In this document: piece after piece, positions 2,026 through 48,771 of the stretch
Numbering within the stretch: the stretch's first letter is position 1
How the letters are laid out: each line of letters begins with the position of its first letter
Assembly: GCA_964490165.1 (NCBI GenBank)
Contig: CAZBAR010000003.1
Location: 42,463 to 106,462, forward strand
From: an uncultured Lachnospiraceae bacterium
GTDB taxonomy: Bacteria; Bacillota; Clostridia; Oscillospirales; CAG-272
DNA: 64,000 nt
Direction: 5' to 3'
Program-made: the position numbers and the translations under genes
Notes under the pieces: generated by a model
Database searches by the model: none
What the model was told of the DNA's origin: nothing
Seen by the model: the letters and a program-made list of their open reading frames with translations, nothing else

Positions 2026-2697
2026 TTAACCGTATATTCTGCAAGCGGCATATTTGGAAAATACACCGACCCGACAGCCTTCAAGCTGCACCGCGTCCCG
2101 AATGATATCAGGCAAATATTCATCCCACTTTACTTCTAAAATTATGGGGTCGCCGGTAACAGGGACGGTCGGGCTGCTGAAATCGAAGAAACCGCCCGTC
2201 TGCATTCCGCTTCTGATATTATAATCCAAAGTAACGCGAACATTACCCGGTACAAAAACAAACGCCTCTCTTGTGTAATCAACGATCGTTTTCGGGCGAA
2301 GCCCCTGACTTGTCATTTTGCTGTAAAGCTCCGTTATAAGCGAAGCTCCGCATGATCTCATCCATTTAAGATCACCGTCAAGGATCGCCTGTACCTGCTC
2401 TGCTGTCAAAGGCTCACTTTCTTTAAGGCAGAGTCCGTTCACCTTGCTTTTCTTTTCCAGTCTTATAAAGGACAGATCGCCGTTATAATACCGTATACGG
2501 AATTTTTCACGGATATTCACACCGTCCAGCTTCTCTCTCAGCGCCTTATCTGTCAGCGTATCAAAATAGAGGCTTCGGACTTCATATTTTCCGTTTACAG
2601 AATGGACGTCTCTGACTGTCAGAACAGAAAGTCTGGATCTTAATCCTGACATATCGCCGTAACATATCTCGTGCTTCCATTCATGTCGGTATTTCAT
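2026..2697 (-). CDS. VTC-domain (polyphosphate-polymerase-like) protein
   Basis: 223-aa ORF opening MKYRHEWKHEI..., which fits the size and N-terminal signature I associate with bacterial VTC-domain proteins. It lies 33 nt upstream of the DUF4956 gene. No search was run. Confidence 0.65.
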   Translation of the reverse strand: MKYRHEWKHEICYGDMSGLRSRLSVLTVRDVHSVNGKYEVRSLYFDTLTDKALREKLDGVNIREKFRIRYYNGDLSFIRLEKKSKVNGLCLKESEPLTAEQVQAILDGDLKWMRSCGASLITELYSKMTSQGLRPKTIVDYTREAFVFVPGNVRVTLDYNIRSGMQTGGFFDFSSPTVPVTGDPIILEVKWDEYLPDIIRDAVQLEGCRVGVFSKYAACRIYG

Positions 2698-2780
2698 TTT
2701 TTCACTTCCTTTGCTTTGATTTTATACATAGAGATCGCCATTTTGCCGCACTGCGGCGGCACAAATTATAAAAAATCAGG

Positions 2781-3021
2781 CTGTCGAAAAACTAGATTGC
2801 TGTAGCAAAATAACTAAAAGTTTTGGTCAAGCTTTTTCAAAAGCTTGTGGGTTTTTAGGGCAACGCCCTAAATCGATCGCCGCAGCGATCGAAATCCTAA
2901 GACTGACCGGAGTCCAGAGGGTCGTACTTCCCGCCGTGGCGGGAATGTACTTGGGCAGCGGCTCGCAAGCCGCGAAATTCCCTTTTTGTGCATTTTGCTA
3001 TTTCTATGGACTTTTTCGACA
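2781..3021 (-). repeat. MITE-like intergenic element with terminal inverted repeats and a cargo of five mini-hairpins (related copy at 44189-44350)
   Basis: The ends CTGTCGAAAAACTAGAT... and ...ATGGACTTTTTCGACAAG form the inverted repeat TGTCGAAAAA. About 46 nt at each end align at roughly 80-85 percent with the ends of the 44189-44350 copy in opposite orientation. The interior holds the hairpins AAGCTTT/AAAGCTT, TTTAGGGC/GCCCTAAA, CGATCGC/GCGATCG, TTCCCGCC/GGCGGGAA and GCGGCT/AGCCGC. Confidence 0.7.
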
Positions 3022-3026
3022 AGCTC

Positions 3027-3062
3027 AAAAAATCTCCTGTGTTTACACACAGGAGATTTTTT
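3027..3062. terminator. bidirectional intrinsic terminator downstream of the histidine kinase gene
   Basis: AAAAAA-TCTCCTGTGT-ttac-ACACAGGAGA-TTTTTT: a perfect 10-bp stem flanked by an A-run and a T-run. Confidence 0.7.
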
Positions 3063-3167
3063 GCGTGAAATAATTGTATAAAAGTCTGATCTAATGTATT
3101 TTTCACGCGCTCCTGTACCTGACTGCTGTCATTGTACAGGAGGAAGATTGAAGTTTGATTGAAGATA

Positions 3168-4421
3168 TTAAAAATTTTTGATAGGTATTTGAGCCTTAAA
3201 TTCTACCAAGCCGTTATTACATTGAACACTGATCTTTCCGCCGTGTGCAATAACGATCGCCTTTGCAATGGCAAGCCCCAAGCCGTAATGACCATCGTCA
3301 CCGTTTCTGACAGTATCGATGCGGTAAAACCGCTCAAACAGCTTTGCCTGCTGCTCCGCCGGGATCTCTGCGCCTGAATTTATTACAGACAGCTTTGCAT
3401 ATCCGTGTTCTGCTTTGAGAATAAGTCTGACCTCATCGCCGCTGCCGTGTCTTATTGCATTATCTAACAAAATGGAGATAAGCTGTTTTATCTGAACGCT
3501 GTTTCCTGCAATAAAAATATTTTCATCAATGCTGCAATTCAGCCGAAGCCCGTTTTCAAATGCCACGCTTTCAAAAGGTAGTGCTTCTCCGTTGACTATC
3601 TGAGTGAGATCTATATGCTCAGTCAGCGGTGCAGCATTTTCAACACGGGACAGCTCAAGCAGCTGCGTTACCAATACTCCCATACGCTCATTTTCATATT
3701 GAATATTGGCAAGCCAGCGGTTATCACCCAATTCTCTGGCTAAAAGCTCCGCATTGGTGCTGACAACGGATATAGGCGTTTTTAATTCATGCCCCGCATC
3801 GGAAATGAACTGCTTTTGCTTCTCATAGCTTGCTTCAAGCGGCTGAACGATCCGTCTTGCAAGATAAACTGCCAGACGGAACAGCGCAACTATTGCCAGC
3901 CCTCCGAAGATCAGAGTATACCGAAACAGAGTATTCATGCTCTCGTTGATTATAGTGTTGTCCTTAAAGGCGACCAGCATATAGCGGCCTTTATCCATAG
4001 TGTAATAAGCGAGATCGTTTTTGACACCGGCTGTTTTATTTTTACTGATAAGCTCGCGTGCGAGGCTCTCCAGCTCACTGTCGCTGTGCACCGTTTGCTG
4101 CGGATTTCTGATCTCTATGACCTCTCCGTCATAAGTCATGGCAACTGTATAAAAGGTGGATAGCTGAAATGAAGGGGACTCCGAAAAGCCCGGTCTTCCC
4201 CTGTTTGGCTCAGCTGCGGCAGGCGGCGGAGCATTAAAAAACTGCTGTGATAAAATATGTCGCTCGGCGTGCTCTGCCAGCATTTCCTTGTTCTGCTCTG
4301 ACATATCAAAATAGCTGAACGCATAGATAACAGAAAGCGTTCCCACCCACAAAAGCACCAGCACCGTCATAATGGCGGCAACGATCTTTCTTCTGGACGT
4401 CTTAAACATTCTTATTACCAC
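3168..4421 (-). CDS. sensor histidine kinase (two TM segments, periplasmic loop, HisKA + HATPase_c)
   Basis: 417-aa ORF with H-box SDAGHELKTPISVV, N-box LLDNAIRHG and G-box GLGLAIAKAIV. One TM helix at the N-terminus and a second near residue 170. Confidence 0.9.
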   Translation of the reverse strand: MVIRMFKTSRRKIVAAIMTVLVLLWVGTLSVIYAFSYFDMSEQNKEMLAEHAERHILSQQFFNAPPPAAAEPNRGRPGFSESPSFQLSTFYTVAMTYDGEVIEIRNPQQTVHSDSELESLARELISKNKTAGVKNDLAYYTMDKGRYMLVAFKDNTIINESMNTLFRYTLIFGGLAIVALFRLAVYLARRIVQPLEASYEKQKQFISDAGHELKTPISVVSTNAELLARELGDNRWLANIQYENERMGVLVTQLLELSRVENAAPLTEHIDLTQIVNGEALPFESVAFENGLRLNCSIDENIFIAGNSVQIKQLISILLDNAIRHGSGDEVRLILKAEHGYAKLSVINSGAEIPAEQQAKLFERFYRIDTVRNGDDGHYGLGLAIAKAIVIAHGGKISVQCNNGLVEFKAQIPIKNF

Positions 4422-5961: not shown

Positions 5962-7761
5962 ATGATAAATGTAATTCCAACACCCAAAAGTATTAAAGAA
6001 GACTACGGCCGCTTTAAGGCGCAGGATATTTCTGTATGCGTCAATTCCGATGCTGACAAAAGGGTCATATCCGCCGCTGCGACCCTTTGCAAAGAGCTCG
6101 GAGCTCTGTCTCATTCGTATATTCCGCTGATCTCATCATCTCCGGAAAGCTGCAATGTAATAATAGCTCACGGCGAGGGCGGCGAGGGATACACCCTCAG
6201 TGTGAATGAAGACAGGATCTGCATATCCGGTGAGGGACCTGCCGGCGCTTTTTACGGCATACAGACCCTGCGTCAGCTTCTGAAGACGGACGGTCTGTCA
6301 GTTCCCTGCTGTCAGATAGACGACGCTCCCGACCTTACCTACAGAGGCTTTTACCACGACATATCACGCGGCAGAGTAAACCGTCTCGAGACTCTCAAAA
6401 AAATAGCGGATATGCTCTCCTACTTCAAAATGAATTCCTTGCAGCTTTATGTGGAAGCAGCCTTTACCTTTAAGGAGCTGGAGGGTATCTCAACAGACGA
6501 AAACGCCCTTACACCCGAAGAAATTCTGGAGCTTGACGAATACTGCTACAACAGATTTATTGACCTGGTCCCTTCCCTCTCCACCTTCGGTCACCTGTTC
6601 ACACTGCTGCAAAGCGAAAAGTACAGCGATATATGCGAGCTTGGTCCTCATAAAATCACGAGAAACTACTGGCTTGAGCGTCAGTGGCATCACACCGTTG
6701 ACGTTTATAATCCCCGTACCATACAGGTAATAGGAAGTATGCTTGAACAGTACATCCCCCTGTTCCGCTCAAAATACTTCAATATCTGCTGCGACGAGAC
6801 ACTTGACCTGTGCAGCGGAAAGAACAAGGGCAAGGACAAAGGCGAAGCCTACTTCCATCACCTTGACAAGCTGATCGAAATAGTAAAATCCCACGGCAAA
6901 ATCCCCATGATATGGGGAGACGAATGTATGTCAAAGCCTGAAATGGCGAAGCAGCACGTACCGGGCGATACTGTCATACTCAACTGGTGCTATCACAAGG
7001 AGGTCAACGAGTGGATCCCTAAGTTCTACTACGATCTCGGTTTCAATCAGATCGTATGCCCCGGCACCTCCTGCTGGGATAACTTTGTTGAGAATATCGA
7101 CATATCCATTGGAAATATATCGGATTTTGCCGCACACGCTAAAAAATACGGCGCTCTCGGTATGCTCAACACCAACTGGGGTGACTTCGGACATATCTGC
7201 TCCTTTAACTGCAACCTGTACGGCGCGCTTTTCGGAGCTCAGAAAAGCTGGAATGTTGACGCGCCCACCGACACGGAATTTGAAAAAGCCGCAACGCTGC
7301 TTATGTATGACACAGAGAATTTCAACATAGCAAACGTACTGCGAAAGCTCAGCGAAGCCGCTTACACCTGCTCATGGGATAATTTTGTCGTATGGCACAG
7401 CGCCGTCACACTTGAGGGAAAAGACGAAATGCTGCGCCTCTACGGCAAGGATGGCTATTACCCCGAAGACAACATAAATTCCGCAGAGCTGTGCAGACAG
7501 GCGATAGACGAGCTTGCCTCGCTGAACGTGGCAGATAAGAGAATAAAAGACCTTATTCTCGGCGCCAAAGGTATCGAGCTTATGAACAGAGAATACCTCT
7601 ATGTAAATAAAGCCGAGGGCTTCTGCGACGGAGATGCACTGCAAGCCGAATTTGACGAGTGGCTTAAAGAGTACAGCGCGTCATGGCTGGAAAGCTGCAA
7701 GCCCTCCGATCTCTCCATTCTTCAGGAGTTTATCGGGAATATTACAAAGATAGAAAAGTAA
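5962..7761 (+). CDS. GH20 beta-N-acetylhexosaminidase-like glycoside hydrolase
   Basis: 599 aa with an N-terminal GH20 b-domain-like region (GEGYTLSV...GAFYGIQTLRQL), IDDAPDLTYRGFYHDISRG and a putative catalytic D-E pair in NICCDE. No signal peptide is obvious. Confidence 0.7.
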   Translation: MINVIPTPKSIKEDYGRFKAQDISVCVNSDADKRVISAAATLCKELGALSHSYIPLISSSPESCNVIIAHGEGGEGYTLSVNEDRICISGEGPAGAFYGIQTLRQLLKTDGLSVPCCQIDDAPDLTYRGFYHDISRGRVNRLETLKKIADMLSYFKMNSLQLYVEAAFTFKELEGISTDENALTPEEILELDEYCYNRFIDLVPSLSTFGHLFTLLQSEKYSDICELGPHKITRNYWLERQWHHTVDVYNPRTIQVIGSMLEQYIPLFRSKYFNICCDETLDLCSGKNKGKDKGEAYFHHLDKLIEIVKSHGKIPMIWGDECMSKPEMAKQHVPGDTVILNWCYHKEVNEWIPKFYYDLGFNQIVCPGTSCWDNFVENIDISIGNISDFAAHAKKYGALGMLNTNWGDFGHICSFNCNLYGALFGAQKSWNVDAPTDTEFEKAATLLMYDTENFNIANVLRKLSEAAYTCSWDNFVVWHSAVTLEGKDEMLRLYGKDGYYPEDNINSAELCRQAIDELASLNVADKRIKDLILGAKGIELMNREYLYVNKAEGFCDGDALQAEFDEWLKEYSASWLESCKPSDLSILQEFIGNITKIEK

Positions 7762-11048: not shown

Positions 11049-12878
11049 CTATATAACATACTTATCCGCCTGCGTGTGCCACATTTCGGCGTACTTGCCG
11101 CCGGCGCGAAGCAGGCTTTCGTGGTCTCCCTCCTCACAAACTGCACCGTTTTCCATTACGATTATTCTGTCTGCAAGGCGAGTAGTGGAAAGTCTGTGGG
11201 AAATAAATACAACTGTGCTGTCTTTTGCCGCTTCGCGCATATAAATATTGAAATTGTATTCCGCTATAGGGTCAAGAGCACTTGACGGCTCGTCCAGTAT
11301 AATAAGTCCCGAATTTTTATAAAACGCACGTGCTATGGCGATCTTCTGCGCCTCGCCGCCGGACAGGTTTACTCCCTCATCGTCAAACTCCGCAGTAAGC
11401 TCAGTATCAAGACCGTGCGGCAAACGCTCCAGCCTTTCGCCGAAGCCGCTGTGTCTGAGCGCCGAACGTACCTTTTCGTCATCAGTGCTGCCATCTGTCA
11501 CGTCCATTACTACGTTTTCCTTAACCGTTCCGCCGTACAGGTTGAAATCCTGAAAAACTACACCTATATTATGGCGGTACGCCTTTACGTCATAGCTTTT
11601 AATACTCTGCCCGTCCATATATATTTCGCCCTCGGTGGGATCGTACAGGCGAAGCAGCAGCTTTGTAAGAGTGGTCTTGCCTGCGCCGTTATAGCCTACA
11701 ATAGCGATCTTCTCCTTGGGACGAAGTGACAGTGAAACATTGTTCAGAACGTACCCGTCTGTGTCGTTATACTTAAACGAAACGTTTTTCATCTCCAATG
11801 AGCACGGCTCATGGGAAACAGGCAGGTTTTCCTCTGATTTGATCTTGCCGTCACGTCTGAGAAACTCGCGCACCTTCTCCACATACATACAGTTTTCAGC
11901 AGAGTTTGAAAGTCTCAGAATAACGCTTGTAAAAGCCCAACGGACACGGTACACCGAGCGCATCATAACTACCATGGTAGCATAGCTTATGATCTCCAGC
12001 ACGCTTGCCTGATAGGCAAGAACAAGAACAAACAAAAGGTCAAACAGTGCAATATCAAAAAAGTCCTGCGCCCATGTGAGCAGATTAAGCCTTTTGTTGT
12101 GGCTGCCCACGACCTCGCAAACCTTTTCGGTGGCTTCATCAAAATCGTCAAACGCGCGCTCTCCCGCCTCGCTGCCCAAACGCAGCTCCTTTGCGTAGTC
12201 TGAAAGGTAAAACAGTCTCTTTATGTATCCTGTTCTGCGCCTGTATTTCTCGCGCAGAGCAAATTTACTGTAGTTATACTTGCTTCGGGTAAGCTGAAGC
12301 ACCATAGTTAGCACGGCGGACAACGCCACAACGGCGAAAGCTGCCGGACTTACCGCCGCAAAATATACACCCGTAGTTATAACCGTGCCCAGTGACATTG
12401 AAATTACGGAAATTATTTTCAAAATATAATCCACAAGTCCTACAGCCTTTTCAGTAGTCATTATGAAATCGTTATAATAGGTCGGATCGTCAAAATATTC
12501 AAGATCAACGTCATGCGCCTTTTCAAAAAGCATATTTTTGATCTTTGTTTCAGCTCTCAGCTTTGCTTTCGGCAAAAGCCACTGTCCTACTACCGAGCCG
12601 AGCACGCTTGACACCATAAGCATAATCACTACTGCAAGTATGGGATAAAAAGCCGAAGTGAACGGCTTGTTGTACTGTATACAGTCAAGCACCGTTTGGA
12701 TAAGCCATGTGTGCTCAATAAATATAAACACCTGAACCCTGAACTGCTCCAGTGCATACAGCGCTACGCCCACGGGGCTTGCGGAAAACACAAGCTTTAT
12801 TAAAAACCAGTTGTCGGCAATTATCTTTTTTGCCGAAAGCTTCGGAGCCTCTGCAAATTCCATGTTTTTCTTTTTCAT
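11049..12878 (-). CDS. ABC exporter half-transporter (TMD-NBD), second of a pair
   Basis: Walker A GYNGAGKTT, signature LSGGEAQK, Walker B IILDEPSSALD. The start overlaps the upstream partner by 4 nt (ATGA). Confidence 0.9.
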   Translation of the reverse strand: MKKKNMEFAEAPKLSAKKIIADNWFLIKLVFSASPVGVALYALEQFRVQVFIFIEHTWLIQTVLDCIQYNKPFTSAFYPILAVVIMLMVSSVLGSVVGQWLLPKAKLRAETKIKNMLFEKAHDVDLEYFDDPTYYNDFIMTTEKAVGLVDYILKIISVISMSLGTVITTGVYFAAVSPAAFAVVALSAVLTMVLQLTRSKYNYSKFALREKYRRRTGYIKRLFYLSDYAKELRLGSEAGERAFDDFDEATEKVCEVVGSHNKRLNLLTWAQDFFDIALFDLLFVLVLAYQASVLEIISYATMVVMMRSVYRVRWAFTSVILRLSNSAENCMYVEKVREFLRRDGKIKSEENLPVSHEPCSLEMKNVSFKYNDTDGYVLNNVSLSLRPKEKIAIVGYNGAGKTTLTKLLLRLYDPTEGEIYMDGQSIKSYDVKAYRHNIGVVFQDFNLYGGTVKENVVMDVTDGSTDDEKVRSALRHSGFGERLERLPHGLDTELTAEFDDEGVNLSGGEAQKIAIARAFYKNSGLIILDEPSSALDPIAEYNFNIYMREAAKDSTVVFISHRLSTTRLADRIIVMENGAVCEEGDHESLLRAGGKYAEMWHTQADKYVI

Positions 12879-14722
12879 ACAGCTTCCTCCTCTCCGCCTG
12901 CTGCAAGGTAACTCTTAGCCTGATGAATAAACATATCGGCATATGCACCGCCCTTTGACATAAGGGCACTGTGCGTACCGCTCTCAACAAGACAGCCGTT
13001 TTCAAACATCAATATTTTATCAGCAGACTTTACAGACGACAGTCTGTGAGAAATGAGGAAAACTGTTTTATTCTCCGTCGCCTCCATGATAGCATTGAAC
13101 AGATCGTACTCCGCTATAGGGTCAAGAGCACTGGAAGGCTCATCGAATACCATGCATCTTCCGTTTTGCACCAGTGCTCTTGCAACCGCCAGCTTTTGAT
13201 ACTGACCGCCTGAGAACACCGCTCCGCTGTCGTCAAACTCTCTTGTCATGGTAGTATTCATGGATTTTTCAAGCCCCTCTACCTTATCCCATAGTCCTAC
13301 CTTTTCAAGAGCTGTGCGCGCCGCCTCCTCGGTGTCCTCACACTCCGCGCCCATGGTAATATTATCAAGCACGCTCATAGCAAACACCTTGTAGTCCTGA
13401 AAAGCTGCGGAAAACAGCTTGCGGTATGATCTTACCTCATATTCTCTGATATCGATGCCGTTAAGAAGTATCACGCCCTCATCAGGGTCGTAAAGGCGGA
13501 GAAGAAGCTTTACTATAGTGCTCTTTCCCGCGCCGTTATGGCCTACCAGCGCGATCCTCTCCCCTCCGCGAACGGTGAATGACAGAGCATTAACAGCAGC
13601 CTCGCTGCTGCCGTCATACTTAAATGTAACGTTTCTGAACTCGATAGTGTCTATTGCCTCAGGCACGCTTAGTCCCTTGCCGTCCTCGGGGATCCTTTCT
13701 TTGTAATTCAAAAATTCGCGCACATTCTGAATGTAAATGCAATCGTTATGCAGTTCCATACTATATTCAAACAGACCTATTATCCTCCAGGACGCTGCCG
13801 TCATTACCGATGTAAAAATAGTCATTTCGGCAAGGTCAATAGTACCCGAAACAAGTGCCCGATAGCTGCAATACAGCAGTATGCCTTCAAAGATCATCAG
13901 GTAGTTAAACTGCACCTGCCCCCAATACACCGCGCCGCTGCCAAGTGCAAAGCGATCCCAGATACGCAGATTTTTTCCTACAGCATCAGAGTGCTTTTTC
14001 TGCATCATATCGTATACGCCGGTTATTCTCATTTCCTTTGCGTACTGACCGAGATGCAGTACTCTCAAAACGTAATCTATGATACGCGCATTTCTTGTGT
14101 TTTCTTTATACCGTTTTTGGTCGATACTGTTAAGCCACCTGCCGAAAACGAAATTGCCTATTATGGGAAAAACAAGAAACACAGCAATATACGGATCGGT
14201 TTTCATCATTACTGTCATATAAAAAACAACTAAGGCAAATGCACTCAATATCTGTAAAATTCCGTAAAACACATTCTGTATTCGCTCAGGCGTATTGTCC
14301 AGCGCTCTTGTGTACTTATTGTAAAATTCAGCATCCTCATAGCACGCAAGCTCTACATTGGCGGCTTTCTTAAAAATAAGCTTATTTATATGTTTGCTGA
14401 AACGCTCATCCACTGTTTCAATATCGTAGACATACTTTGTCTCACAGAATTTAACAACTAAAATTGCGGCAAACATAGTTGAAACAAGAATTACAATATT
14501 TATAAACGGGCTGCGGGATTCTATAAAGCTTACAAGGAATTTAACATAATATGTATTATTATACGCCATATAAACGGCCCATGCCAGCATTATAACGATC
14601 CACAAAACCGCATACTTTTTATAAAATTTCAAATACTCTTTTACGGCAAAAAGGCAATTGTCAAAGATCCCTTTTGCTGTTATTTCTTTTTCTTTCTTCT
14701 CTCTCTTTTTGAATAACTTCAT
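12875..14722 (-). CDS. ABC exporter half-transporter (TMD-NBD), first of a pair
   Basis: Walker A GHNGAGKST, FSGGQYQK, MVFDEPSSALD. Paralogous to 11049-12878 (both share SSALDPIAEY). Start set at ATG 14722 behind GAAGGAG; the TTG start in the track is 36 codons upstream. Confidence 0.9.
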   Translation of the reverse strand: MKLFKKREKKEKEITAKGIFDNCLFAVKEYLKFYKKYAVLWIVIMLAWAVYMAYNNTYYVKFLVSFIESRSPFINIVILVSTMFAAILVVKFCETKYVYDIETVDERFSKHINKLIFKKAANVELACYEDAEFYNKYTRALDNTPERIQNVFYGILQILSAFALVVFYMTVMMKTDPYIAVFLVFPIIGNFVFGRWLNSIDQKRYKENTRNARIIDYVLRVLHLGQYAKEMRITGVYDMMQKKHSDAVGKNLRIWDRFALGSGAVYWGQVQFNYLMIFEGILLYCSYRALVSGTIDLAEMTIFTSVMTAASWRIIGLFEYSMELHNDCIYIQNVREFLNYKERIPEDGKGLSVPEAIDTIEFRNVTFKYDGSSEAAVNALSFTVRGGERIALVGHNGAGKSTIVKLLLRLYDPDEGVILLNGIDIREYEVRSYRKLFSAAFQDYKVFAMSVLDNITMGAECEDTEEAARTALEKVGLWDKVEGLEKSMNTTMTREFDDSGAVFSGGQYQKLAVARALVQNGRCMVFDEPSSALDPIAEYDLFNAIMEATENKTVFLISHRLSSVKSADKILMFENGCLVESGTHSALMSKGGAYADMFIHQAKSYLAAGGEEEAV

Positions 14723-14846
14723 ACGATCTCCTTCTTTCAATATTACTTCACTAAACAAACCGAATATACTCTGAGATAGTTGAAAGCGTTCTCCTTTCTG
14801 CGCGCTCGGCGGCTGTTGTTTGAAAATCAAGCTTATATTTTATATT

Positions 14847-15048
14847 AACTTTCTTTTTTGAGCAAAAAAGAAAGTTAGAAAGAAAAATGCTTCAAAGGGA
14901 ACGGAAAGAATTCCTTTCCCTTTGAAATCCCATTCTTTCTTTCAGCTTCCGAAGGAAGCATAACGAAATTTACAGCAAACCTTTAGGGGGCAATAGCCCC
15001 AATATTGTTTGACAGAAGCTAACGTGTGCTTCCCGCAGGGAAGCACAC
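14847..15048. repeat. array of five short GC-rich hairpins in the gap between the two ABC pairs
   Basis: AACTTTCTTTTTT/AAAAAAGAAAGTT (13 bp), CAAAGGGA../..TCCCTTTG (8+4 bp), GCTTCC-gaa-GGAAGC, GGGGC-aata-GCCCC, GTGTGCTTCCC-gca-GGGAAGCACAC (11 bp). Confidence 0.7.
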
Positions 15049-15080
15049 AGGAAAGTGGGATATTTAGCGGTAAAACAAAT

Positions 15081-16898
15081 TTACTCAAAAGCTGAATTTG
15101 TAGCTTCGTCCTCATACTGTCTGGTGTACAGTCCGTAGTAATAGCCGCCTTTGGCGATAAGCTCCTCGTGGGTTCCCTGCTCCACGATCTTACCGTCGCG
15201 CACGACCAGTATCAGGTCCGCATTTCTGACCGTTGACAGTCTGTGCGCTATAACAAGCGATGTTCTGCCCTTGATTATAGTATCTATAGCGGACTGTATC
15301 TTCTGCTCGGTTATAGTGTCAACAGACGCGGTTGCCTCATCAAGCACAAGTATTTTCGGGTCGGCAAGCACCGCTCTTGCAAAGGATATAAGCTGCTTTT
15401 CTCCGGTGGATAAAAGATCTCCGCCCTCTCCAACATCACTGTCAAGTCCGTTTTCAAGATGCTCCACCACGCCCTGTGCCGACACAAGGCTGAGTGCACG
15501 GTCAATATCGTCCTCAGTCGCACCCGGATTGCCGTACAGAAGATTTTCACGAACCGTGCCCGAAAACAGATGCGGCGTTTGAAGCACATAGCCGATAGCG
15601 CTGTGCAGCCAAAGCTGCGAGCGTTCTCTGGCGTCTCTGCCGTCGATAAGCACCTGACCCTCTGTAGGCTCAAAAAATCTGCACACAAGATTGACAAGGG
15701 TAGACTTACCCGCTCCGGTCTCGCCGACTATGGCAATATTCGTGCCGAACGGTATTTTCAGATTGAAGTGCTCCAGCACATACTCATCGCCGTCGGGATA
15801 CTTAAAGCTAACGTCGCGAAACTCTATATCACCGCGAATGGCCTCCCAGTTTTCACGCTTCGCAGTGAAGCTGTCGCCGTACTTCTCAATTACTTCGGGA
15901 GTGTCCTTTACGTCAGACTCTGTCTCCACAAGGCGAGAAAAACGCTCTATATTTACCTGCGTGGTAATAAGGTCGGATATGCAGTCGATTATCCATCTTA
16001 CCGGCTCCATCATTCCCTGCGCATAGGACATAAACATAGAAAACGTTCCCACCTCTTCGGCTGCAATATATCCTCCGCGCCACAAAACTATCGCCAGCGC
16101 AAGAGATGACGCCAGATTCATGGTAACAGCAAACATACTGCGTATGCGCGCGCCCTGCACTGTCTTTTTCAGCATAGCATCTGTATCGCTGACAAAATGA
16201 TCAGTCATTTTGTCCTCAATAACAAGCGTCTTTACCGTTTTTGCACCGGTAATGCCCTCGTTAAAGTTTCCCGTTATCTTAGAGTTTATCTCGCGCACCT
16301 CGCGGTTGACGCGAATAAGCTTTTTCTGAAACAGCGAAAATATCACGGTAATAAGCGGAATTATCGCCATTATCATTAACGCCAGCTTATAGTTGATAAC
16401 AAGCATTACGATTATTGAAAAAAGCAGATACGATATGTGCCAGACGCCGTCCATCATGGACCACGATACAAGCGAACCGATGCGGCTTGTATCGCTCATA
16501 ACTCTTGCGTGAATATAGCCGACGCTGTTCTGATTGTAGTACGAAAACGACAGCGTCTGCAAATGATTGAATGCCGCGTTTCTCAGGTCCTTGTTTATAC
16601 TGACCTCAACGCGCATAGCGAAGGCACATGAAATATAGTTTACAACGCCGGTGAGTATAACGGTCAGCGCGTAGATAACTATGAAAAACGGCAGTGTGTC
16701 AAGGGTGTTCTCACCCACAAAATGGTTGAGCGCATATCGCTGGTACAGAGGCGTTACCGTATCGAACGCGCTTCCAAGCAGACCGCAGATTATCATCAGC
16801 GCGATCAAACTTTTGTACTTCTTCATAAAAGGCAGTATTTTTCCGACTCCGAAAAACGGCAGTGCCTTTTTCTCGTTTATTTCTTTGTAATCTGTCAT
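15081..16898 (-). CDS. heterodimeric ABC exporter subunit (canonical Walker B, deviant signature)
   Basis: Walker A GETGAGKST, Walker B LVLDEATASVD, signature LSTGEKQL instead of LSGGQ. Lies 6 nt downstream of its partner. Confidence 0.9.
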   Translation of the reverse strand: MTDYKEINEKKALPFFGVGKILPFMKKYKSLIALMIICGLLGSAFDTVTPLYQRYALNHFVGENTLDTLPFFIVIYALTVILTGVVNYISCAFAMRVEVSINKDLRNAAFNHLQTLSFSYYNQNSVGYIHARVMSDTSRIGSLVSWSMMDGVWHISYLLFSIIVMLVINYKLALMIMAIIPLITVIFSLFQKKLIRVNREVREINSKITGNFNEGITGAKTVKTLVIEDKMTDHFVSDTDAMLKKTVQGARIRSMFAVTMNLASSLALAIVLWRGGYIAAEEVGTFSMFMSYAQGMMEPVRWIIDCISDLITTQVNIERFSRLVETESDVKDTPEVIEKYGDSFTAKRENWEAIRGDIEFRDVSFKYPDGDEYVLEHFNLKIPFGTNIAIVGETGAGKSTLVNLVCRFFEPTEGQVLIDGRDARERSQLWLHSAIGYVLQTPHLFSGTVRENLLYGNPGATEDDIDRALSLVSAQGVVEHLENGLDSDVGEGGDLLSTGEKQLISFARAVLADPKILVLDEATASVDTITEQKIQSAIDTIIKGRTSLVIAHRLSTVRNADLILVVRDGKIVEQGTHEELIAKGGYYYGLYTRQYEDEATNSAFE

Positions 16899-16904
16899 AC
16901 CGTA

Positions 16905-18767
16905 TCACTCCCCTTTCTTATCATCCTGCGATCCTGACTGGATCTCATATATTTTCTGATAGATCCCGCCGCCGCGCTTCAGCTCCTCATGTGTTCCGCG
17001 CTCCACTATCCTGCCGCGGTCAAGCACCAGTATCTGATCTGCCGCCGACAGCGTGGTTATGCGGTGCGAAATGAGTATTATGCTTGACGTGCCGAAACGC
17101 TCCTCCAGCGAGCGGCGTATCTTTTCATCTGTCTCGGTATCCACCGCTGACAGTGAGTCGTCAAATATCATAACAGGCGTTTTCTGCGTAAGTATTCTGG
17201 CAATAGCCGCCCTCTGCTTCTGTCCGCCTGAAAGAGTCACTCCTCTCTCGCCTACAAAGGTGTCGTAGCCCTGTGTAAAGCCCTCAACAGTTTCGTCAAG
17301 ACAAGCGGCGCGCGCCGCCTCGCGTATTTCACTCAGCGTTATACCGTCGTCTGTAATTCCTATATTCTCCGCAATTGTGCGCGAAAACAGATACGGCTCC
17401 TGCAGAACGATGCCGATATTTTTTCTCAGGTGCTCCGCCTTTATGTCGGCGATATCAACGCCGCCGACAGTGATCCTGCCGCTGTTATCAGGCAGATCGT
17501 AAAGCCTGTCCAAAAGCAGCATCATTGTAGATTTACCGCTGCCCGTGCCGCCGAGAATACCCAGCGTTGTACCGCCCTTCATAGTAAAGCTTATATCGTG
17601 AAGCATTTCGGGGCAGCCCTCGTACGCAAAATTAACGTGATCAAAAACAATATCCCCACTCATATCGGGGCAAACGGCATTGGGCTTGTCGCACTCAATT
17701 TCAGACTCCATAATGTATCTGATACGGTCGATCGAAACACCCGCCTTGCTCATTTCCGATATCATTCTGCCAAGCTGACGTATAGGCCACATAAGCAGCG
17801 CGTTATAAGAGATAAACGCTATGTATTCGCCGGGTTCCATGCTTCCGTTTATGCAGAAGACCGCGCCGAATACGACAACAAGAAGTATCTGTGTTCCTGA
17901 CAGAACGTCGGAAGTGCTCCAGAATCGGCTCATTACCTTTGCCAGTCTGACCCACAACCCCGTATAATACTCGTTATGCGCTTCAAAGCGCTCTTTTTCA
18001 TAGCGTTCCCGTCCGAAAGCGCGGACTACCCGCACGCCTGTCAGATTTTCCTGCGCCATTGCCGACAGCTTGCCCTCGTTTTCGTCGCACAGAGCAAAGC
18101 CGCGCCCGATATTCTTGTGAAACATCAGAGAGTACAGCACGATAATAGGAGTCGGCGCAAGGGATATAAGCGTAAGCGGCACGTTCATTGATGACATAAA
18201 CGCAATAGACATAACAAGCAGTATTACTATTCTGAATATGCTTGTAAGCTGTTCGGAAACGAAGTTTTTCAAAGTATCGATATCCGAAGTGCAGCGCTGG
18301 ATTATATCGCCTGTGCGGTTTTTCATGTGCCACGAAAAGGGCAGCCGCTCAATGCGTGAGAAAAGGCTGTCTCGCATATTTTTAACAAGCCTTTCCGATG
18401 CGATAGTGTTTGTAACTCGGAAGGAGTACTGCGCCGCCACCCGCACGATTTCTACGGCGAGAATGGCGAGAGCCATTATCCACAGATTGCGTCCCAGATA
18501 TTCAAATCCGCCGAGACTGTCCACAAAGCGCATTATGACAGGGGAAAAATCCGCTGCTTTACCGCCGATGGCGTTATCTACCGCCGCGCGTATTATCTGC
18601 GGAGTTATCATATCCGCAAATACCATAAGAGCCGCGGACAGTATGCTCAGAGCAAACATTGCAAGACATCCGTGGAGGAAATACCAAATAAGCGCCGCCT
18701 TCTTTTTTCCCTCAGAGCGCTTTGCTGTTATCTTCTCGTTCTTTTCATTTTTCTTCTTCATTTTCAT
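16905..18767 (-). CDS. heterodimeric ABC exporter subunit (degenerate catalytic site)
   Basis: Walker A GGTGSGKST, signature LSGGQKQR, Walker B MIFDDSLSAVD (Asp where the catalytic Glu is expected). Start set at ATG 18767 behind GAAAGGA. Confidence 0.9.
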   Translation of the reverse strand: MKMKKKNEKNEKITAKRSEGKKKAALIWYFLHGCLAMFALSILSAALMVFADMITPQIIRAAVDNAIGGKAADFSPVIMRFVDSLGGFEYLGRNLWIMALAILAVEIVRVAAQYSFRVTNTIASERLVKNMRDSLFSRIERLPFSWHMKNRTGDIIQRCTSDIDTLKNFVSEQLTSIFRIVILLVMSIAFMSSMNVPLTLISLAPTPIIVLYSLMFHKNIGRGFALCDENEGKLSAMAQENLTGVRVVRAFGRERYEKERFEAHNEYYTGLWVRLAKVMSRFWSTSDVLSGTQILLVVVFGAVFCINGSMEPGEYIAFISYNALLMWPIRQLGRMISEMSKAGVSIDRIRYIMESEIECDKPNAVCPDMSGDIVFDHVNFAYEGCPEMLHDISFTMKGGTTLGILGGTGSGKSTMMLLLDRLYDLPDNSGRITVGGVDIADIKAEHLRKNIGIVLQEPYLFSRTIAENIGITDDGITLSEIREAARAACLDETVEGFTQGYDTFVGERGVTLSGGQKQRAAIARILTQKTPVMIFDDSLSAVDTETDEKIRRSLEERFGTSSIILISHRITTLSAADQILVLDRGRIVERGTHEELKRGGGIYQKIYEIQSGSQDDKKGE

Positions 18768-18811
18768 CGATACCGTTCCTTTCATAACTAAAATTCCAGC
18801 CAAAACAGCGC

Positions 18812-18846
18812 AAAAAAATGCGGTGCAGGCTCGTACCCACACCGCA
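18812..18846 (-). terminator. intrinsic terminator inside the 5' leader of the ABC pair (candidate attenuator)
   Basis: On the minus strand: TGCGGTGTGG-tacgag-CCTGCACCGCA followed by TTTTTTT. It lies 23 nt after the stop of the 33-aa upstream ORF and 44 nt before the ABC start codon. Confidence 0.65.
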
Positions 18847-28842: not shown

Positions 28843-28928
28843 CTTTCTTTGGCTTTGTGCAAAGCACAAAGCGCGCGTGAAAAAGGGTATTTACGATTTG
28901 AATTTTCGTATTTTTCACGCTGACCTCC
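28843..28928 (-). repeat. hairpin cassette repeat, subfamily 2 (partner copy at 47853-47941)
   Basis: The reverse complement reads GGAGGTCAGCGTGAAAAATACGA..AATCGTAAATACCCTTTTTTCACGCGCGCTTTGTGCTTTGCACAAAGCCAAAGAAAG, then 14 nt, then the ATG of the Zn-ribbon gene. Roughly 80 percent identical to 47853-47941. Confidence 0.75.
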
Positions 28929-31220: not shown

Positions 31221-31343
31221 CCTTTCTTTGAGTTTGTGTCGGTTCCGCTGTAAGCGGAATTCGCCCGTGCTGTTTGGGCGAAAGGCACAAATCGTGTCTG
31301 AAAACGCTATACTGTCGATTTATGTTTAACTTTATTTTCAGAC
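31221..31343 (-). repeat. hairpin cassette repeat, subfamily 1, between blaI-like and blaR1-like genes
   Basis: The reverse complement reads GTCTGAAAAT..GTTTTCAGAC ACGATTTGTG CC[TTTCGCCC..GGGCGAA][TTCCGCT tac AGCGGAA]..GACACAAAC TCAAAGAAAGG TATGGTCATAATT ATG. Same order as the dap-operon copies. Confidence 0.8.
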
Positions 31344-32757: not shown

Positions 32758-32764
32758 GTTTTCA

Positions 32765-32925
32765 CACGGTAGAGGTGCATTGTGCCAAGAGTATTTCGGA
32801 CCAAAGAGGGTTGACTGCCTGTTGTCCGATCGAAAGGGGCAGGTGCCGAGGGCAGACTCTTGTCAGGTCTGTACCGGTTTGGGCGAATAAGATCGTCCCG
32901 ACTGTCGCTTTTGCGGAGAGCTATC
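32765..32925 (+). promoter_or_regulatory. lysine riboswitch (L-box) aptamer
   Basis: The conserved L-box blocks appear in order: AGAGGTGC, AGAGTA, CGAAAGGGG, GTGCCGAGGG, TTGGGC, ACTGTCGC. It sits directly upstream of dapA. Confidence 0.85.
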
Positions 32926-32957
32926 AGTACGATAATTTAGCTTTTTTGCAATGTTTG

Positions 32958-33904: not shown

Positions 33905-33931
33905 AATAAAGCAAAGGATAAAAGGATATAA

Positions 33932-34031
33932 GTCTGAAAACAGAGAAATTAAAAAGCTAAAGTAAATTGTTTTCAGACCCGATTTGTGCTTTCGTCCCGC
34001 TTTGGGACGAAAGCACAAATCCAAAGAAAGG
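33932..34031 (+). repeat. hairpin cassette repeat, subfamily 1, at the dapA|dapB junction
   Basis: GTCTGAAAACA-(25 nt)-TGTTTTCAGAC CC GATTTGTG CTTTCGTCCC-gcttt-GGGACGAAAG CACAAATC CAAAGAAAGG, then 12 nt, then the dapB ATG. Confidence 0.85.
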
Positions 34032-42038: not shown

Positions 42039-44183
42039 ATGAAAAATAAAGATCAACTTATAACAAAAATACGCTTTGACTTGAAGCCGGACGACGAGAC
42101 CGACAAAATACAGGGCGAAGTGCTGTTTTTTGCAGACCGTATCGAGATCGTCAGCGAAGCCGACAACCGCACTGTAACCACTGACAAAATAACGGAATAC
42201 AGATGTACAACGGGTATAGGCTGCATAATGCTCGAAGCGGAAACTGACAGCGGTTATATTCTTATCTGCCGCGGCAGTATGGAATATTCTCAGGTGTTCA
42301 GCCTTTGTCAGAAACGCCTGAACAAGCATCTGCAAAACGGAGAAATACGAGAGGAATGGATGGAATATCCGGACGTAATATGTCCGAAGTGCCACCGTCC
42401 GCTTCCTCCGGGACAGTCAAAATGTCCGCGCTGCGCCGAAAAAGGAATGTACATACGCCGTCTTTGGCAAATGTCGAAACCCTATCACAAATACATATAC
42501 GCATCGGTCATTATATATTTTGTAATAACCCTTGTAAACATGACAGTTCCCGTTGTCAACCGCGTGCTTGTTGACGACTACATTAAGGCTGAGACAATTC
42601 CGCCTTTAGGGCAGTACGCCATAGTAGTTGCAATGCTGCTTTTATTGCAGGTGATCTCACGCCTGCTTACCATGCTGCGATCCTATTTGCAAACAATATC
42701 TGCCAACAAAATAATAGTCATGATGCGGCGCATAACCTTCAGAAAGGTTGAAGAAATGTCGCTGGCAAAGGTTTCAAAGCGCACAGCGGGCGAGCTTATA
42801 AACAGAATTTCCGACGACACGCGACAGATACAGCAGTTCATAACAAGCGAAACAGGTATGATCATAGAAAACGCACTTATGCTTGTAGGCATATCTGCAA
42901 TGCTGTTCTGGTACGACTGGCGGCTGGCACTGATGATACTCCTCCCCACTCCGATCGTAATGATGTCACACCGCCTTATGTGGAACTTTTTGGGCAAACG
43001 TTATCACAAGCAGTGGATGGTAAACGCAAAGGCAGATACTATACTGCACGACATTTTCTCCGGCATAAGAGTTGTAAAAGCCTTCGGCATGGAGAACGCG
43101 GAGCACAGCCGTTATGATGTGGCTATTAAAGAAGAGCGAAAGACCAGAGCGGACAACGAAACGTATTTCGCGCTGATCTCACCTATAACCAGCTTTCTGA
43201 TGGGACTCGGCGAATTTTTCCTGCTTTATTTCGTTGGCAATAAGATACTTGACGGAACTATGACTCTCGGTGAGATGCAGCAGTTCTCCGCTTACGTTTC
43301 GATGCTGTACGCACCGCTGAGATGGATGTCATTCCTGCCCCGCCGACTGAGCCGCACAATGACCTCAGTGGTCAAGGTATTTGACGTTATAGACGAGGAA
43401 AATGATGTTGCAGACCGCCCCAATGCCGTAAACGGCGACGCTTCGGGCGTTATCGAAATAGAAAATCTCAATTTCGGCTATGAAAGCAATGCTAACGTGC
43501 TGAAGGGCGTTGATCTGACCATTCATCCCGGTGAAATGATAGGCATTGTAGGACGTTCGGGAGTCGGCAAGTCTACGCTTATAAACCTTATAATGCGTCT
43601 GTATGACCCCGACGAAGGATCCATAAAGATAGGCGGCACTGACATACGCGATATGACGCAGGAGTCCATGCGCCGTCAAATGGGTGTAGTTCTTCAGGAA
43701 ACAATGCTGTTCAGCGGAACTTTGTATCAAAACATTGCCTATTCAAAGCCGGATGCGACACCGGAGGAAATTATAAGCGCCGCAAAGGTCTCAGGTGTGC
43801 ATAAGTTTGCGGTAAAGCTGCCTGACGGATACAACACCGTGATCGGAGAAAAGGGCTATACCCTGTCCGGAGGAGAAAGACAGCGAGTGGCAATCGCACG
43901 TGCGCTGCTGCACGATCCCCGCATTCTTATTCTTGATGAAGCTACTTCAGCTCTTGACACAGAGACCGAAAAGGACATACAGGACACGCTGCAAAAGCTT
44001 ATTGCAGGACGAACAACTATAGCCATTGCGCATAGACTTTCAACACTGCGAAACGCCACACGCCTTGTGGTACTCGACCGCGGCAGAGTAGCCGAGGTCG
44101 GTTCTCACGAAGAGCTAATGAAGAAAAAAGGATTGTATTACGATCTTGTCATGGCACAAAGACAGATGTCAAAAATGGCTTGA
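42039..44183 (+). CDS. ABC exporter half-transporter with an N-terminal cytoplasmic domain and a zinc ribbon
   Basis: About 105-aa N-domain homologous to that of 39084-41492 (GIGCIMLEAETDSGYILICRG..VFSLCQKRLNKHL), then CPKC-x10-CPRC, then TMD and NBD (GRSGVGKST, LSGGERQR, LILDEATSALD). Confidence 0.85.
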   Translation: MKNKDQLITKIRFDLKPDDETDKIQGEVLFFADRIEIVSEADNRTVTTDKITEYRCTTGIGCIMLEAETDSGYILICRGSMEYSQVFSLCQKRLNKHLQNGEIREEWMEYPDVICPKCHRPLPPGQSKCPRCAEKGMYIRRLWQMSKPYHKYIYASVIIYFVITLVNMTVPVVNRVLVDDYIKAETIPPLGQYAIVVAMLLLLQVISRLLTMLRSYLQTISANKIIVMMRRITFRKVEEMSLAKVSKRTAGELINRISDDTRQIQQFITSETGMIIENALMLVGISAMLFWYDWRLALMILLPTPIVMMSHRLMWNFLGKRYHKQWMVNAKADTILHDIFSGIRVVKAFGMENAEHSRYDVAIKEERKTRADNETYFALISPITSFLMGLGEFFLLYFVGNKILDGTMTLGEMQQFSAYVSMLYAPLRWMSFLPRRLSRTMTSVVKVFDVIDEENDVADRPNAVNGDASGVIEIENLNFGYESNANVLKGVDLTIHPGEMIGIVGRSGVGKSTLINLIMRLYDPDEGSIKIGGTDIRDMTQESMRRQMGVVLQETMLFSGTLYQNIAYSKPDATPEEIISAAKVSGVHKFAVKLPDGYNTVIGEKGYTLSGGERQRVAIARALLHDPRILILDEATSALDTETEKDIQDTLQKLIAGRTTIAIAHRLSTLRNATRLVVLDRGRVAEVGSHEELMKKKGLYYDLVMAQRQMSKMA

Positions 44184-44188
44184 GGTTA

Positions 44189-44350
44189 TCGAAAAAGTCC
44201 ATAGCCATAGAAATGGCAAAATATACAAAAGAGCTTTTCGGCACCTGGGGTCGCCTGACTAAGTACTGCCCTACCACTGCGCCCGCCTCCCCAAAAGGCG
44301 GGCGAAAACTTTTTGTTACTTTGCTACAGCCATTTAGTTTTTCGACAGTC
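44189..44350 (+). repeat. MITE-like element, short copy (related to 2781-3021)
   Basis: TCGAAAAAGTCCATAG[CCATAG]AAATGGCAAAAT...TTTGCTACAGCCATTTAGTTTTTCGACAGTC. Both ends match the 2781-3021 element in inverse orientation, and the interior is shorter (one CGCCCGCC/GGCGGGCG hairpin). Confidence 0.7.
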
Positions 44351-44351
44351 T

Positions 44352-44381
44352 AAAAAAACCGTCACGCGAGTGACGGTTTTT
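44352..44381. terminator. bidirectional terminator between convergent ABC and pfkA genes
   Basis: AAAAAAA-CCGTCAC-gcga-GTGACGG-TTTTT. Confidence 0.7.
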
Positions 44382-44416
44382 ATCATAATCAGTATTTAGT
44401 ATTCTCAACCTAAGCC

Positions 44417-47148: not shown

Positions 47149-47844
47149 ATGGAACAAATATATACAATACCCGTAAACGAAACCTTTGAGGAATGCAAAA
47201 GCGACAAAAGTCTCGGCTGCCCATTTTGCAGACTTTACAAAAAGCTGTCCGACAATGAGCTGGAGCTGATACTGGGCGCATCTATGATGGAACCCGACAC
47301 CAGAAAGAAAACAAACGAGCAGGGCTTCTGCAAGACTCACTGGGCTAAGATGAATTCCATGGGCAAAAAGCTGCCCCTGACGCTCATTATCCAAAGCCAC
47401 CTTGCTGAAGTAGACAAGCTTTTGAAAAAGCCCGGTATTATGCCATCCGCCGCAGCAACCGACACTGCAAAAAAGCTTCAGAAAATGGGGAACGACTGCT
47501 ATATCTGCCGCAGAATAGACTACAATTTTGAACGTATGAACGAAACAGCCGCGCTGCTGTGGGACTCTGACGCGGCATTCGGCGAAAAGCTTTGCGCCAC
47601 ACCTATGTGTCTGCCTCACCTTGCAGGCTTTCTTCAGACAGCGTCAAAAACTCTTAAATCGAAGCCATACAGCGAGCTCTACCGCTCTCTGTACGCTATG
47701 GAGGAGGAATATATGGAAAATATTCGCTCTCACATAGACGGCTTTGCAAGAAAATTTGATTACCGCTATGCAAATGAGCCGTGGAACGGCGAGGAAAATG
47801 CTGTTGAAGAAGCACTGACAGCGCTGAACGGCACAAAAGAATAA
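47149..47844 (+). CDS. cysteine-rich hypothetical protein (possibly DUF6062)
   Basis: 231 aa from ATG 47149 (AAGGAAG SD). Cys pairs CPFC, C..H, CYIC, C..H suggest metal binding. The family name is from memory only. Confidence 0.4.
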   Translation: MEQIYTIPVNETFEECKSDKSLGCPFCRLYKKLSDNELELILGASMMEPDTRKKTNEQGFCKTHWAKMNSMGKKLPLTLIIQSHLAEVDKLLKKPGIMPSAAATDTAKKLQKMGNDCYICRRIDYNFERMNETAALLWDSDAAFGEKLCATPMCLPHLAGFLQTASKTLKSKPYSELYRSLYAMEEEYMENIRSHIDGFARKFDYRYANEPWNGEENAVEEALTALNGTKE

Positions 47845-47852
47845 TTCTGAAC

Positions 47853-47941
47853 GGAGGTTAGCGTGAAAAATTCGATAGACCAAATCGAAAGTAACCTTTT
47901 TCACGCGCGCTTTTGTGCTTTGCACAAAAGCTAAAGAAAGG
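47853..47941 (+). repeat. hairpin cassette repeat, subfamily 2 (partner copy at 28843-28928)
   Basis: GGAGGTTAGCGTGAAAAATTCGATAGACCAAATCGAAAGTAACCTTTTTCACGCGCGCTTTTGTGCTTTGCACAAAAGCTAAAGAAAGG, followed 12 nt later by an ATG (47954). Confidence 0.75.
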
Positions 47942-48605: not shown

Positions 48606-48740
48606 AACCTAGATAGAGGAGCGTCTGACAAGAGTAGCGCCGTTTGTCGGCGTAAAAGGGGATGACGCCGAAGCGGTATATCCGCTGGGACAATGCAGAA
48701 TATGCATTGTACTGTCGCATTTTTGCGGGGCGCTGTCGGC
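48606..48740 (+). promoter_or_regulatory. lysine riboswitch (L-box) aptamer
   Basis: AGAGGAGC, AGAGTA, TAAAAGGGG, GACGCCGAAGC, CTGGGA, ACTGTCGC, in the canonical order. Confidence 0.85.
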
Positions 48741-48771
48741 AGGCTGCATACGGCAAAACAGCCGTATTATC

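Follow-up and report, generated by a model that had tools for sequence, protein, structure and literature searches.

Prokaryotic MITEs are described as IS-derived and IS-mobilised elements of less than 500 bp that are A+T-rich, intergenic and multi-copy, with inverted repeats of ~4-30 bp, direct repeats that fade with age, size variants, and transcripts that form very stable stem-loops (PMC10969869). The QMITE2 elements of Coxiella burnetii have direct repeats of 7-9 bp, inverted repeats of 23-29 bp and a core of 113-145 bp (PMC10969869). The element that we describe here, from an uncultured gut Clostridia genome, resembles these, with dimensions close to those of QMITE2, in being shorter than 500 bp, intergenic and non-coding, in having A+T-rich arms, inverted repeats of ~30 nt and, at one of the two complete copies, a direct repeat of 7-8 bp, and in occurring as a multi-copy family with size variants and a very stable predicted hairpin. 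It differs from them in having no sequence similarity to any element searched, in having arms that are conserved well past the inverted repeat (~57 and ~45 nt), and in lying directly behind a terminator hairpin in four of four copies. The Correia elements of Neisseria and the ERIC elements of enterobacteria are likewise ~100-250 nt long, bounded by inverted repeats, found as long and short variants, and co-transcribed with their neighbours as long hairpins; Correia elements duplicate a TA and carry promoter and IHF sites. Our element shares with these their size class, inverted-repeat bounds and long and short variants, whereas it differs from Correia elements in its 8-bp duplication in place of TA, and in the promoter and IHF sites, which we did not see, and from both in its host phylum. 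We regard it as likely that the family is a MITE, i.e., a non-coding, non-autonomous DNA transposon, not described before and ordinary in kind.

The window that we analysed is a stretch of 64,000 nt of contig CAZBAR010000003.1 (GCA_964490165.1; positions 42,463-106,462, forward strand). Two complete copies are available, A and B, and every other locus shows one terminus, so that with only two complete copies there is nothing to say from covariation or a family consensus. Copy A (2778-3026, + strand), delimited by alignment, a repeat finder, an arm profile and the empty site in relatives, is 249 nt long and reads AGGCTGTCGAAAAAC ... GTTTTTCGACAAGCTC. Copy B (44182-44351, - strand), delimited by alignment, the repeat finder and the arm profile, is 170 nt long and lies in the opposite orientation to A. 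Both lengths fall within the size range of MITEs.

That the two copies share both ends, as the preliminary description of this DNA had claimed, was borne out by alignment and by the repeat finder, which paired 2778-2836 with 44293-44351 (59 nt, 83% identity) and 2995-3028 with 44180-44213 (34 nt, 85% identity). The left arm of A, made up of the terminal inverted repeat and subterminal conserved sequence (2778-2834, +; 34% G+C), gave a profile E value of 9e-13 and the right arm (2976-3026, +) one of 8e-12, and the arms common to A and B extend for ~57 nt on the left and ~45 nt on the right. The ends of the element had also been called inverted repeats of each other, and in copy A they do form an inverted repeat of 30 nt that is 77% complementary. 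The left-arm motif TGTCGAAAAACTANATNGCTGTAGCAAA has just two occurrences in the window, 2782-2809 (+) and 44320-44347 (-), where shuffles lead one to expect 0, and the 10-mer TGTCGAAAAA occurs three times in the window against 0.24 expected by chance. Copy A accounts for two of these sites, one at each end, and copy B for the third, at its left end; the right end of B reads TATCGAAAAA in place of TGTCGAAAAA and shows, in pairwise alignment, the 6-nt CCATAG duplication already reported for the short copy (44199-44210).

When the four arms are aligned, the core TCGAAAAA is invariant and AGCAAA/CAAAA blocks are common to them; the left ends read AGGC/AGAC-TGTCG and the right ends GAGCT/GAGGT-TGTCG/TATCG. 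The conserved termini are therefore AGRC-TGTCG on the left and CGAYA-ASCTC on the right. Since conservation starts 4-5 nt outside TGTCG, we place the elements at 2778-3026 and 44182-44351; the coordinates first proposed, 2781-3021 and 44189-44350, had the right location and fell short in extent by 4-5 nt at the termini. The arms are also set apart by composition, with 34-36% G+C against 56% (A) and 66% (B) in the interiors and 46% in the window.

The variable interior of A (2835-2975, +) holds five to six hairpins that are not tandem repeats of one unit, with hairpins at 2828-2847, 2854-2872, 2873-2892, ~2894-2923 (weak), 2925-2950 and 2958-2975, while B holds one strong hairpin together with weak ones. 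Against the earlier count of five GC-rich mini-hairpins in A and one in B, the first hairpin of A is A+T-rich and B has its weak hairpins as well. The interiors had been called unrelated in length and sequence, and for most of the G+C-rich hairpin region A and B are indeed largely unrelated; the exception is a stretch of 46 nt beside the right arm, where a gapless alignment of A and B reaches ~63% identity, a weak match that 52 of 1000 shuffles equalled or bettered. No tandem repeat was found in the interior of copy A at a minimum score of 30, no common sequence could be found among the inner hairpins, and no other copy of the A interior exists in the window or in the loci that we examined. 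The sole match to an A interior hairpin elsewhere in the window, an 18-nt palindromic hit in a coding region (47414-47431), was set aside as chance. We also considered and rejected a coding role: both copies are open in one frame from the left end, and the frames are out of register between the copies in the right arm, which leaves no conserved protein.

The preliminary description had proposed looking for target-site duplications, for empty sites in relatives and for additional copies, and copy A offers the first two. An exact 8-bp repeat, AAAAAATC (GATTTTTT on the gene strand), can be read directly on both sides of the copy, at 2770-2777 (+) and at 3027-3034 (+). By an empirical estimate, a flanking 8-nt direct repeat with a slack of +-2 nt per end occurs by chance at ~1e-3 of window positions. 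The right copy of the duplication is the T-tract, on the gene strand, of the adjacent intrinsic-terminator hairpin (3027-3062, -; -22.2 kcal/mol, z = -10.5), which makes this T-tract the insertion target of copy A. A terminator consensus scan misses this hairpin, probably because its A-tract pairs with its T-tract.

In relatives whose VTC protein is 77-79% identical, the gene order RR-HK-VTC-DUF4956-CotH is kept, all on one strand, and the HK-VTC spacer measures 107-135 nt (four contigs) versus 470 nt here. Removing 2778-3026 and one copy of the 8-mer from the window leaves ...CACAGGAGATTTTTTATAATTTGTG..., which is colinear with ...GGAGGATTTTTATGTGTAAAGC... in the relatives. A hairpin CTCCTGTAC...GTACAGGAG (window 3113-3150) is conserved in the relatives, where it is followed by GATTTTTAT and then by the ribosome-binding site, and the element-free window sequence has the same hairpin/T-tract/AT...GTG layout. 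Two more pieces of the window spacer are absent from the relatives, namely a GCGTGAAA...TTTCACGC unit (3066-3112) and the second hairpin (3027-3062). The orthologous sites without the element belong to other species (77-85% protein identity), making this a between-species comparison. The layout at copy A is what an insertion by cutting and staggered joining into the T-tract of a terminator leaves behind.

Two observations at this locus stand apart from the insertion itself. In the relatives (77-79%), the hairpin that lies between the histidine kinase and VTC (3113-3150, -) is followed by a T-tract and then by ~30 nt up to the VTC start codon, which suggests a terminator or an attenuator that would couple the two operons. 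Additionally, position 1 of a short-read contig from run SRR9130099 (L002) corresponds to window position 2778, i.e., this contig stops exactly at the left boundary of A, not ~30 nt inside it; a population in which some cells carry the element and others lack it could give this result, and low coverage is an equally possible cause.

Further copies came from Logan short-read contigs that carry exactly the window's proteins (runs SRR9335148, SRR9130099 and SRR9130108). These contigs, which belong to the same strain, all end at the elements: L001 breaks off within an arm at 2810, L003 at 44322 and L085 at 44349, and two contigs from different runs, L086 and L087, both stop at 2998, inside the right arm of A; the breaks fall ~24-30 nt inside an arm. 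Logan assemblies are built with a de Bruijn graph method. Breaks inside the arms are what one would expect of de Bruijn-graph assembly at a multi-copy repeat, and the element would thereby explain the fragmentation of short-read assemblies at these points. A third terminus (copy C), TTGAGCTTGTCGAAAAACCTAACGGTTT, lies at L001 5729-5758, ~2.9 kb left of the window and after an AraC-type gene, where the contig reads ...GCCCGCCGTAAGATCGGCGGGCTT directly followed by GAGCTTGTCGAAAAACCTAACGGTTT. A fourth (copy D), AGACTGTCGAAAAACTAGATTGCT, lies at L104 1-24, ~1.7 kb right of the window, where the reverse complement reads ...CATCCTTGTTTC directly followed by AGACTGTCGAAAAACTAGATTGCT. The 20 bases of copy D visible inward from TGTCG are identical to the left arm of A, and its four outer bases are AGAC, as in copy B, not AGGC as in A. 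One end each of C and D is visible. With these two termini just outside the window, there are at least four copies within ~70 kb, in unrelated flanks. Since exact-pattern scans returned no family members, we infer any copy number beyond four from the assembly breaks.

Copy B sits between the stop codon of an ABC-transporter gene and the terminator of a convergent phosphofructokinase (PFK) gene. The right terminus of the copy, GAGGTTATCG, begins within the TGA stop codon, at 44182, and overlaps the last two bases of that codon, while its left terminus abuts the T-tract of the phosphofructokinase terminator hairpin (44353-44384, -; -16.2 kcal/mol, z = -6.0). No target-site duplication was found in the sequence flanking copy B, and its right end is degenerate, with the TATCG variant and the 6-nt duplication. 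In two relatives (L115 and L116, 84-85% identity) the ABC-transporter protein ends at the same codon, with TAA, and no such element lies downstream; an exact deletion of 44182-44351 from the window gives ATG GCT TAA AAA AAC C..., which puts a TAA at the ancestral position and runs into the terminator's A-tract. The corresponding comparison 3' of PFK was uninformative because a different convergent gene follows PFK in the relatives, and the ABC/PFK junction was not seen in any relative examined. Given the lack of a direct repeat, the degenerate right end and the absence of the junction from relatives, copy B may be old, or it may have arisen when two copies recombined.

Situated after the stop codon of the ABC transporter and ahead of the next terminator, copy B would be co-transcribed as a structured 3' UTR. 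Inside B, on the ABC-transporter strand (44280-44304, +), a G+C-rich hairpin of 9 bp with AAAACTTTTTGTT after it has a terminator-like score, and copy B may in this way supply the operon's actual terminator. In the closest ABC-transporter relative (L115, 85%), positions 7150-7221 read CTTGAGTGGTAGTTGGGGCTCTGCCCCGAACCC...GTCCTTTTTCGTAAAAAGG after the stop codon, and then the contig ends; another repeat may occupy the corresponding place there.

All four copies are alike in their placement. In each, one terminus lies 0-7 nt past the last paired base of a strong hairpin, on its 3' side and on the strand where the hairpin follows a gene; the hairpins at C and D have energies of -19.6 and -19.3 kcal/mol, and z for the four hairpins ranges from -5.4 to -10.5. 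The abutting end is of the left type in B and D and of the GAGCT type in A (its right end) and C, so no orientation bias is visible; the visible subterminal sequence of copy C matches neither arm. Such precision in four of four copies is unlikely under random insertion followed by selection: a rough estimate of ~0.1 per copy, which assumes 3' intergenic regions of 100-200 nt, gives ~1e-4. This strict placement behind terminator hairpins is the only feature that goes beyond the routine, and if it holds genome-wide it would point to a structure-directed or T-tract-directed choice of target.

A mechanism consistent with these observations would run as follows. A transposase encoded elsewhere in the genome would bind the terminal inverted repeats of ~30 nt, with the consensus NAG[R/S][C/T]-TGTCGAAAAA..., and would cut the element out or copy it, and a staggered cut at insertion would yield the target duplication of 7-8 bp. 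Insertion would be strongly biased to the T-tract directly 3' of intrinsic-terminator hairpins, a site where it would harm no gene. The arms would be kept because the transposase needs them, as we propose, while the interior would be free to change by indels and by substitution of G+C-rich hairpins. What is only inferred here is that the element is mobilised in trans, the kind of transposase involved and whatever consequences the element may have for its neighbour genes.

A stronger version of this mechanism would have the transposase itself recognise intrinsic terminators, either through the hairpin and T-tract as a DNA structure or through stalled transcription or replication. With such recognition, every copy would land close to a terminator stem, no more than a few bases away, and the interior would consist of terminator-like hairpins captured at earlier insertion sites. 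Gut Oscillospirales would then have a terminator-homing MITE/IS system, for which a relationship to an element with a AGGCTRTCGAAAA terminus on contig L014 is possible. If true, such a system could rewire 3' ends and be a driver of rearrangements, for instance the ABC-transporter/PFK junction at B. We consider this stronger version unlikely.

The L014 element lies at 7094-7300 of that contig (Oscillospiraceae MAG SIG686). It is 207 nt long, has inverted termini AGGCTATCGAAAAAGG / GGGCTGTCGAAAAGG ~200 nt apart, and stands directly after a PFK terminator. It is like our family in the terminal motif AGGCTRTCGAAAA and in its place behind the PFK terminator, whereas the interior and the subterminal arms are unrelated and the likeness is confined to 12-14 terminal bases, which alone are not above shuffled controls. 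The shared motif hints that one transposase lineage might serve several MITE families in the clade. A further palindrome, CAGTTTGTCGATAAGTTTATCGACAAACTG, follows the 207-nt element on the same contig.

Returning to the MITE explanation, a different account of the same features would make A and B structured non-coding RNA genes or cis-acting RNA elements, in which the arms form a conserved closing helix around variable peripheral hairpins and which are inherited, not mobile. Both copies are indeed predicted to fold in this way, with a closing stem formed from the arms and the hairpins inside; the fold of A is better than that of shuffled sequences on both strands (z = -4.9 on + and -6.7 on -), that of B on one strand (z = -2.8), the inner hairpins have short tetraloop-like caps, and copy B would be transcribed within an mRNA 3' end. 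However, no Rfam 15 match covers the element even at E <= 10, where only weak hairpin noise over the flanking terminators appears, the copies have opposite orientations relative to their neighbour genes with inconsistent positions relative to gene starts, and neither copy has an internal promoter-like site. The differences between the arms of A and B are not compensatory, as judged by reading the four-arm alignment. The element is missing from the orthologous spacer of relatives even though the hairpin at 3113-3150 is conserved there, and an inherited RNA leaves the exact 8-bp flanking duplication unexplained. We hold an RNA identity to be very unlikely.

The small intergenic repeats of Firmicutes such as the pneumococcal BOX, RUP and SPRITE elements, which can be co-transcribed, provide another point of comparison, and BOX in particular has conserved end modules around a variable middle (see also PMC10969869). 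In contrast to our element, in which the hairpins are all different, the BOX interior is an array of one module (boxB), and SPRITE is itself terminator-like, while our element lies beside host terminators whose sequences differ by locus. With no tandem repeat and no two hairpins the same, the interior of A is not a BOX-type array. Along these lines, the family might consist of REP/BIME-like palindromes spread by a RAYT (IS200/IS605-type) transposase, or be a mosaic element like BOX, and its extragenic position beside terminators, its short G+C-rich hairpins and its mosaic layout with conserved ends and a variable middle would suit that. Against it, the inner hairpins have no common consensus and are not repeats of one unit, no RAYT-like gene was seen among the called genes, and the terminal inverted repeats are long and accompanied by a target duplication. 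To our knowledge, REPs and single-strand transposition give rise to neither of these features, and we find this account extremely improbable.

Hardly credible, too, is the notion that A and B are two related intergenic relics of a local duplication or gene conversion, not mobile themselves, since the two full copies that can be read and the missing target duplication at copy B would be in keeping with it, whereas termini at four separate loci with unrelated flanks, the target duplication at copy A, the empty orthologous sites in relatives and breaks inside arms in three independent sequencing runs all speak against it.

The preferred reading remains that of a MITE, and the core of the preliminary description, a MITE-like element with terminal inverted repeats and a variable interior, is strengthened by the target duplication at A, the four loci and the empty sites. 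Two of its side proposals are not supported. It had suggested that the end of the element lies just upstream of a TATAAT box and could donate promoter sequence; the TATAAT (2765-2770, -) lies outside the element, partly within the duplicated target, there is no -35-like hexamer 16-18 nt away inside the element, and a scan of 2500-3300 found no promoter-like site. The closest hexamer resembling TTGACA is TCGACA, at a distance of only 11 nt, which is too short, and scanning found no promoter-like site in or at either copy. It had also grouped the element in a single superfamily with the GTCTGAAAAC cassette repeats of the window. We find only a 10-mer resemblance, the four-arm profile has no match there, and the architecture differs.

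The cassette repeats (31270-31340, -; 33930-34030, +; 35625-35750, +) consist of a hairpin GTCTGAAAAC...GTTTTCAGAC and a hairpin GATTTGTG...CACAAATC, followed by CAAAGAAAGG (the ribosome-binding site) and a start codon. They precede cistrons of a dap/lys operon that lies behind a lysine riboswitch, and are possibly intercistronic processing or translation elements.

The preliminary description noted that the window has no transposase gene, and the genes that we checked agree with this. A Pfam scan of the ten ORFs at 19-32.6 kb detected neither a transposase nor an integrase domain, and none was seen in the genes called on the Logan contigs, which cover ~1-14.6, ~35.4-47.9 and ~51.7-64 kb. Across 80 PFK loci and 13 further loci of relatives (~1 Mb), the L014 pair was the only element with such ends, and no transposase with matching ends appeared there or among plasmid IS ends.

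Wider searches for members of the family were likewise negative. The pattern GTCGAAAAAN7GCTGTAGCAAA had 0 matches in 185,579 species-representative genomes, and its single match in JGI metagenomes, inside an epimerase gene, was dismissed as chance. In IMG/VR the left-arm pattern had 0 matches, and the 16 matches of the right-arm pattern were rejected as chance coding hits (an AMDFFD motif). BLAST of the whole element and of each arm against plasmids and phages returned only chance A+T-rich matches, a Neisseria match being rejected as it lies inside a 597-aa ORF, and in the literature the terminal 10-mers appear only in unrelated primers and constructs. Among the 185,579 species-representative genomes, those that best match the phosphofructokinase (89%) are Candidatus Avispirillum and further animal-gut MAGs of the Oscillospirales. 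Apart from this genome, the clusters built at 90% identity around the four flanking proteins have only a few Logan contigs as members. Such clusters indicate that the species is hardly sampled, which limits what public data can teach about it. The element would represent a new family of MITEs in an uncultured and poorly sampled gut lineage close to Candidatus Avispirillum, and would mark recent insertion sites and possibly sites of rearrangement.

Several other features of the window came to light. A second repeat family (28870-28925, -; 47860-47910, +; 3066-3112, -) reads GCGTGAAAAA, ~27 nt and TTTTTCACGC. At 28870-28925 and 47860-47910 it has GGAGGT before it and is followed by a second hairpin (CTTTGTGCTTTGCACAAAG), AAAGAAAGG and ATG, and it looks like a common 5' leader in its sequence at these two sites. 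Compared with the kinase-VTC spacer of the relatives, the copy at 3066-3112 is inserted sequence, and the short-read contigs L003 and L104 break at this second family. The sole Rfam matches in the window are two lysine riboswitch aptamers (32762-32931, +, and 48606-48743, +), whose scores of 70 and 84.5 bits clear the Rfam gathering score by a wide margin. Lastly, the region 11049-18842 (-) holds four ABC-type ORFs in two tandem pairs, 11049-12878 with 12875-14830 and 15081-16898 with 16905-18842. The latter two ORFs have internal repeats in common, and one short-read contig ends within ORF 12875-14830, at ~14601.
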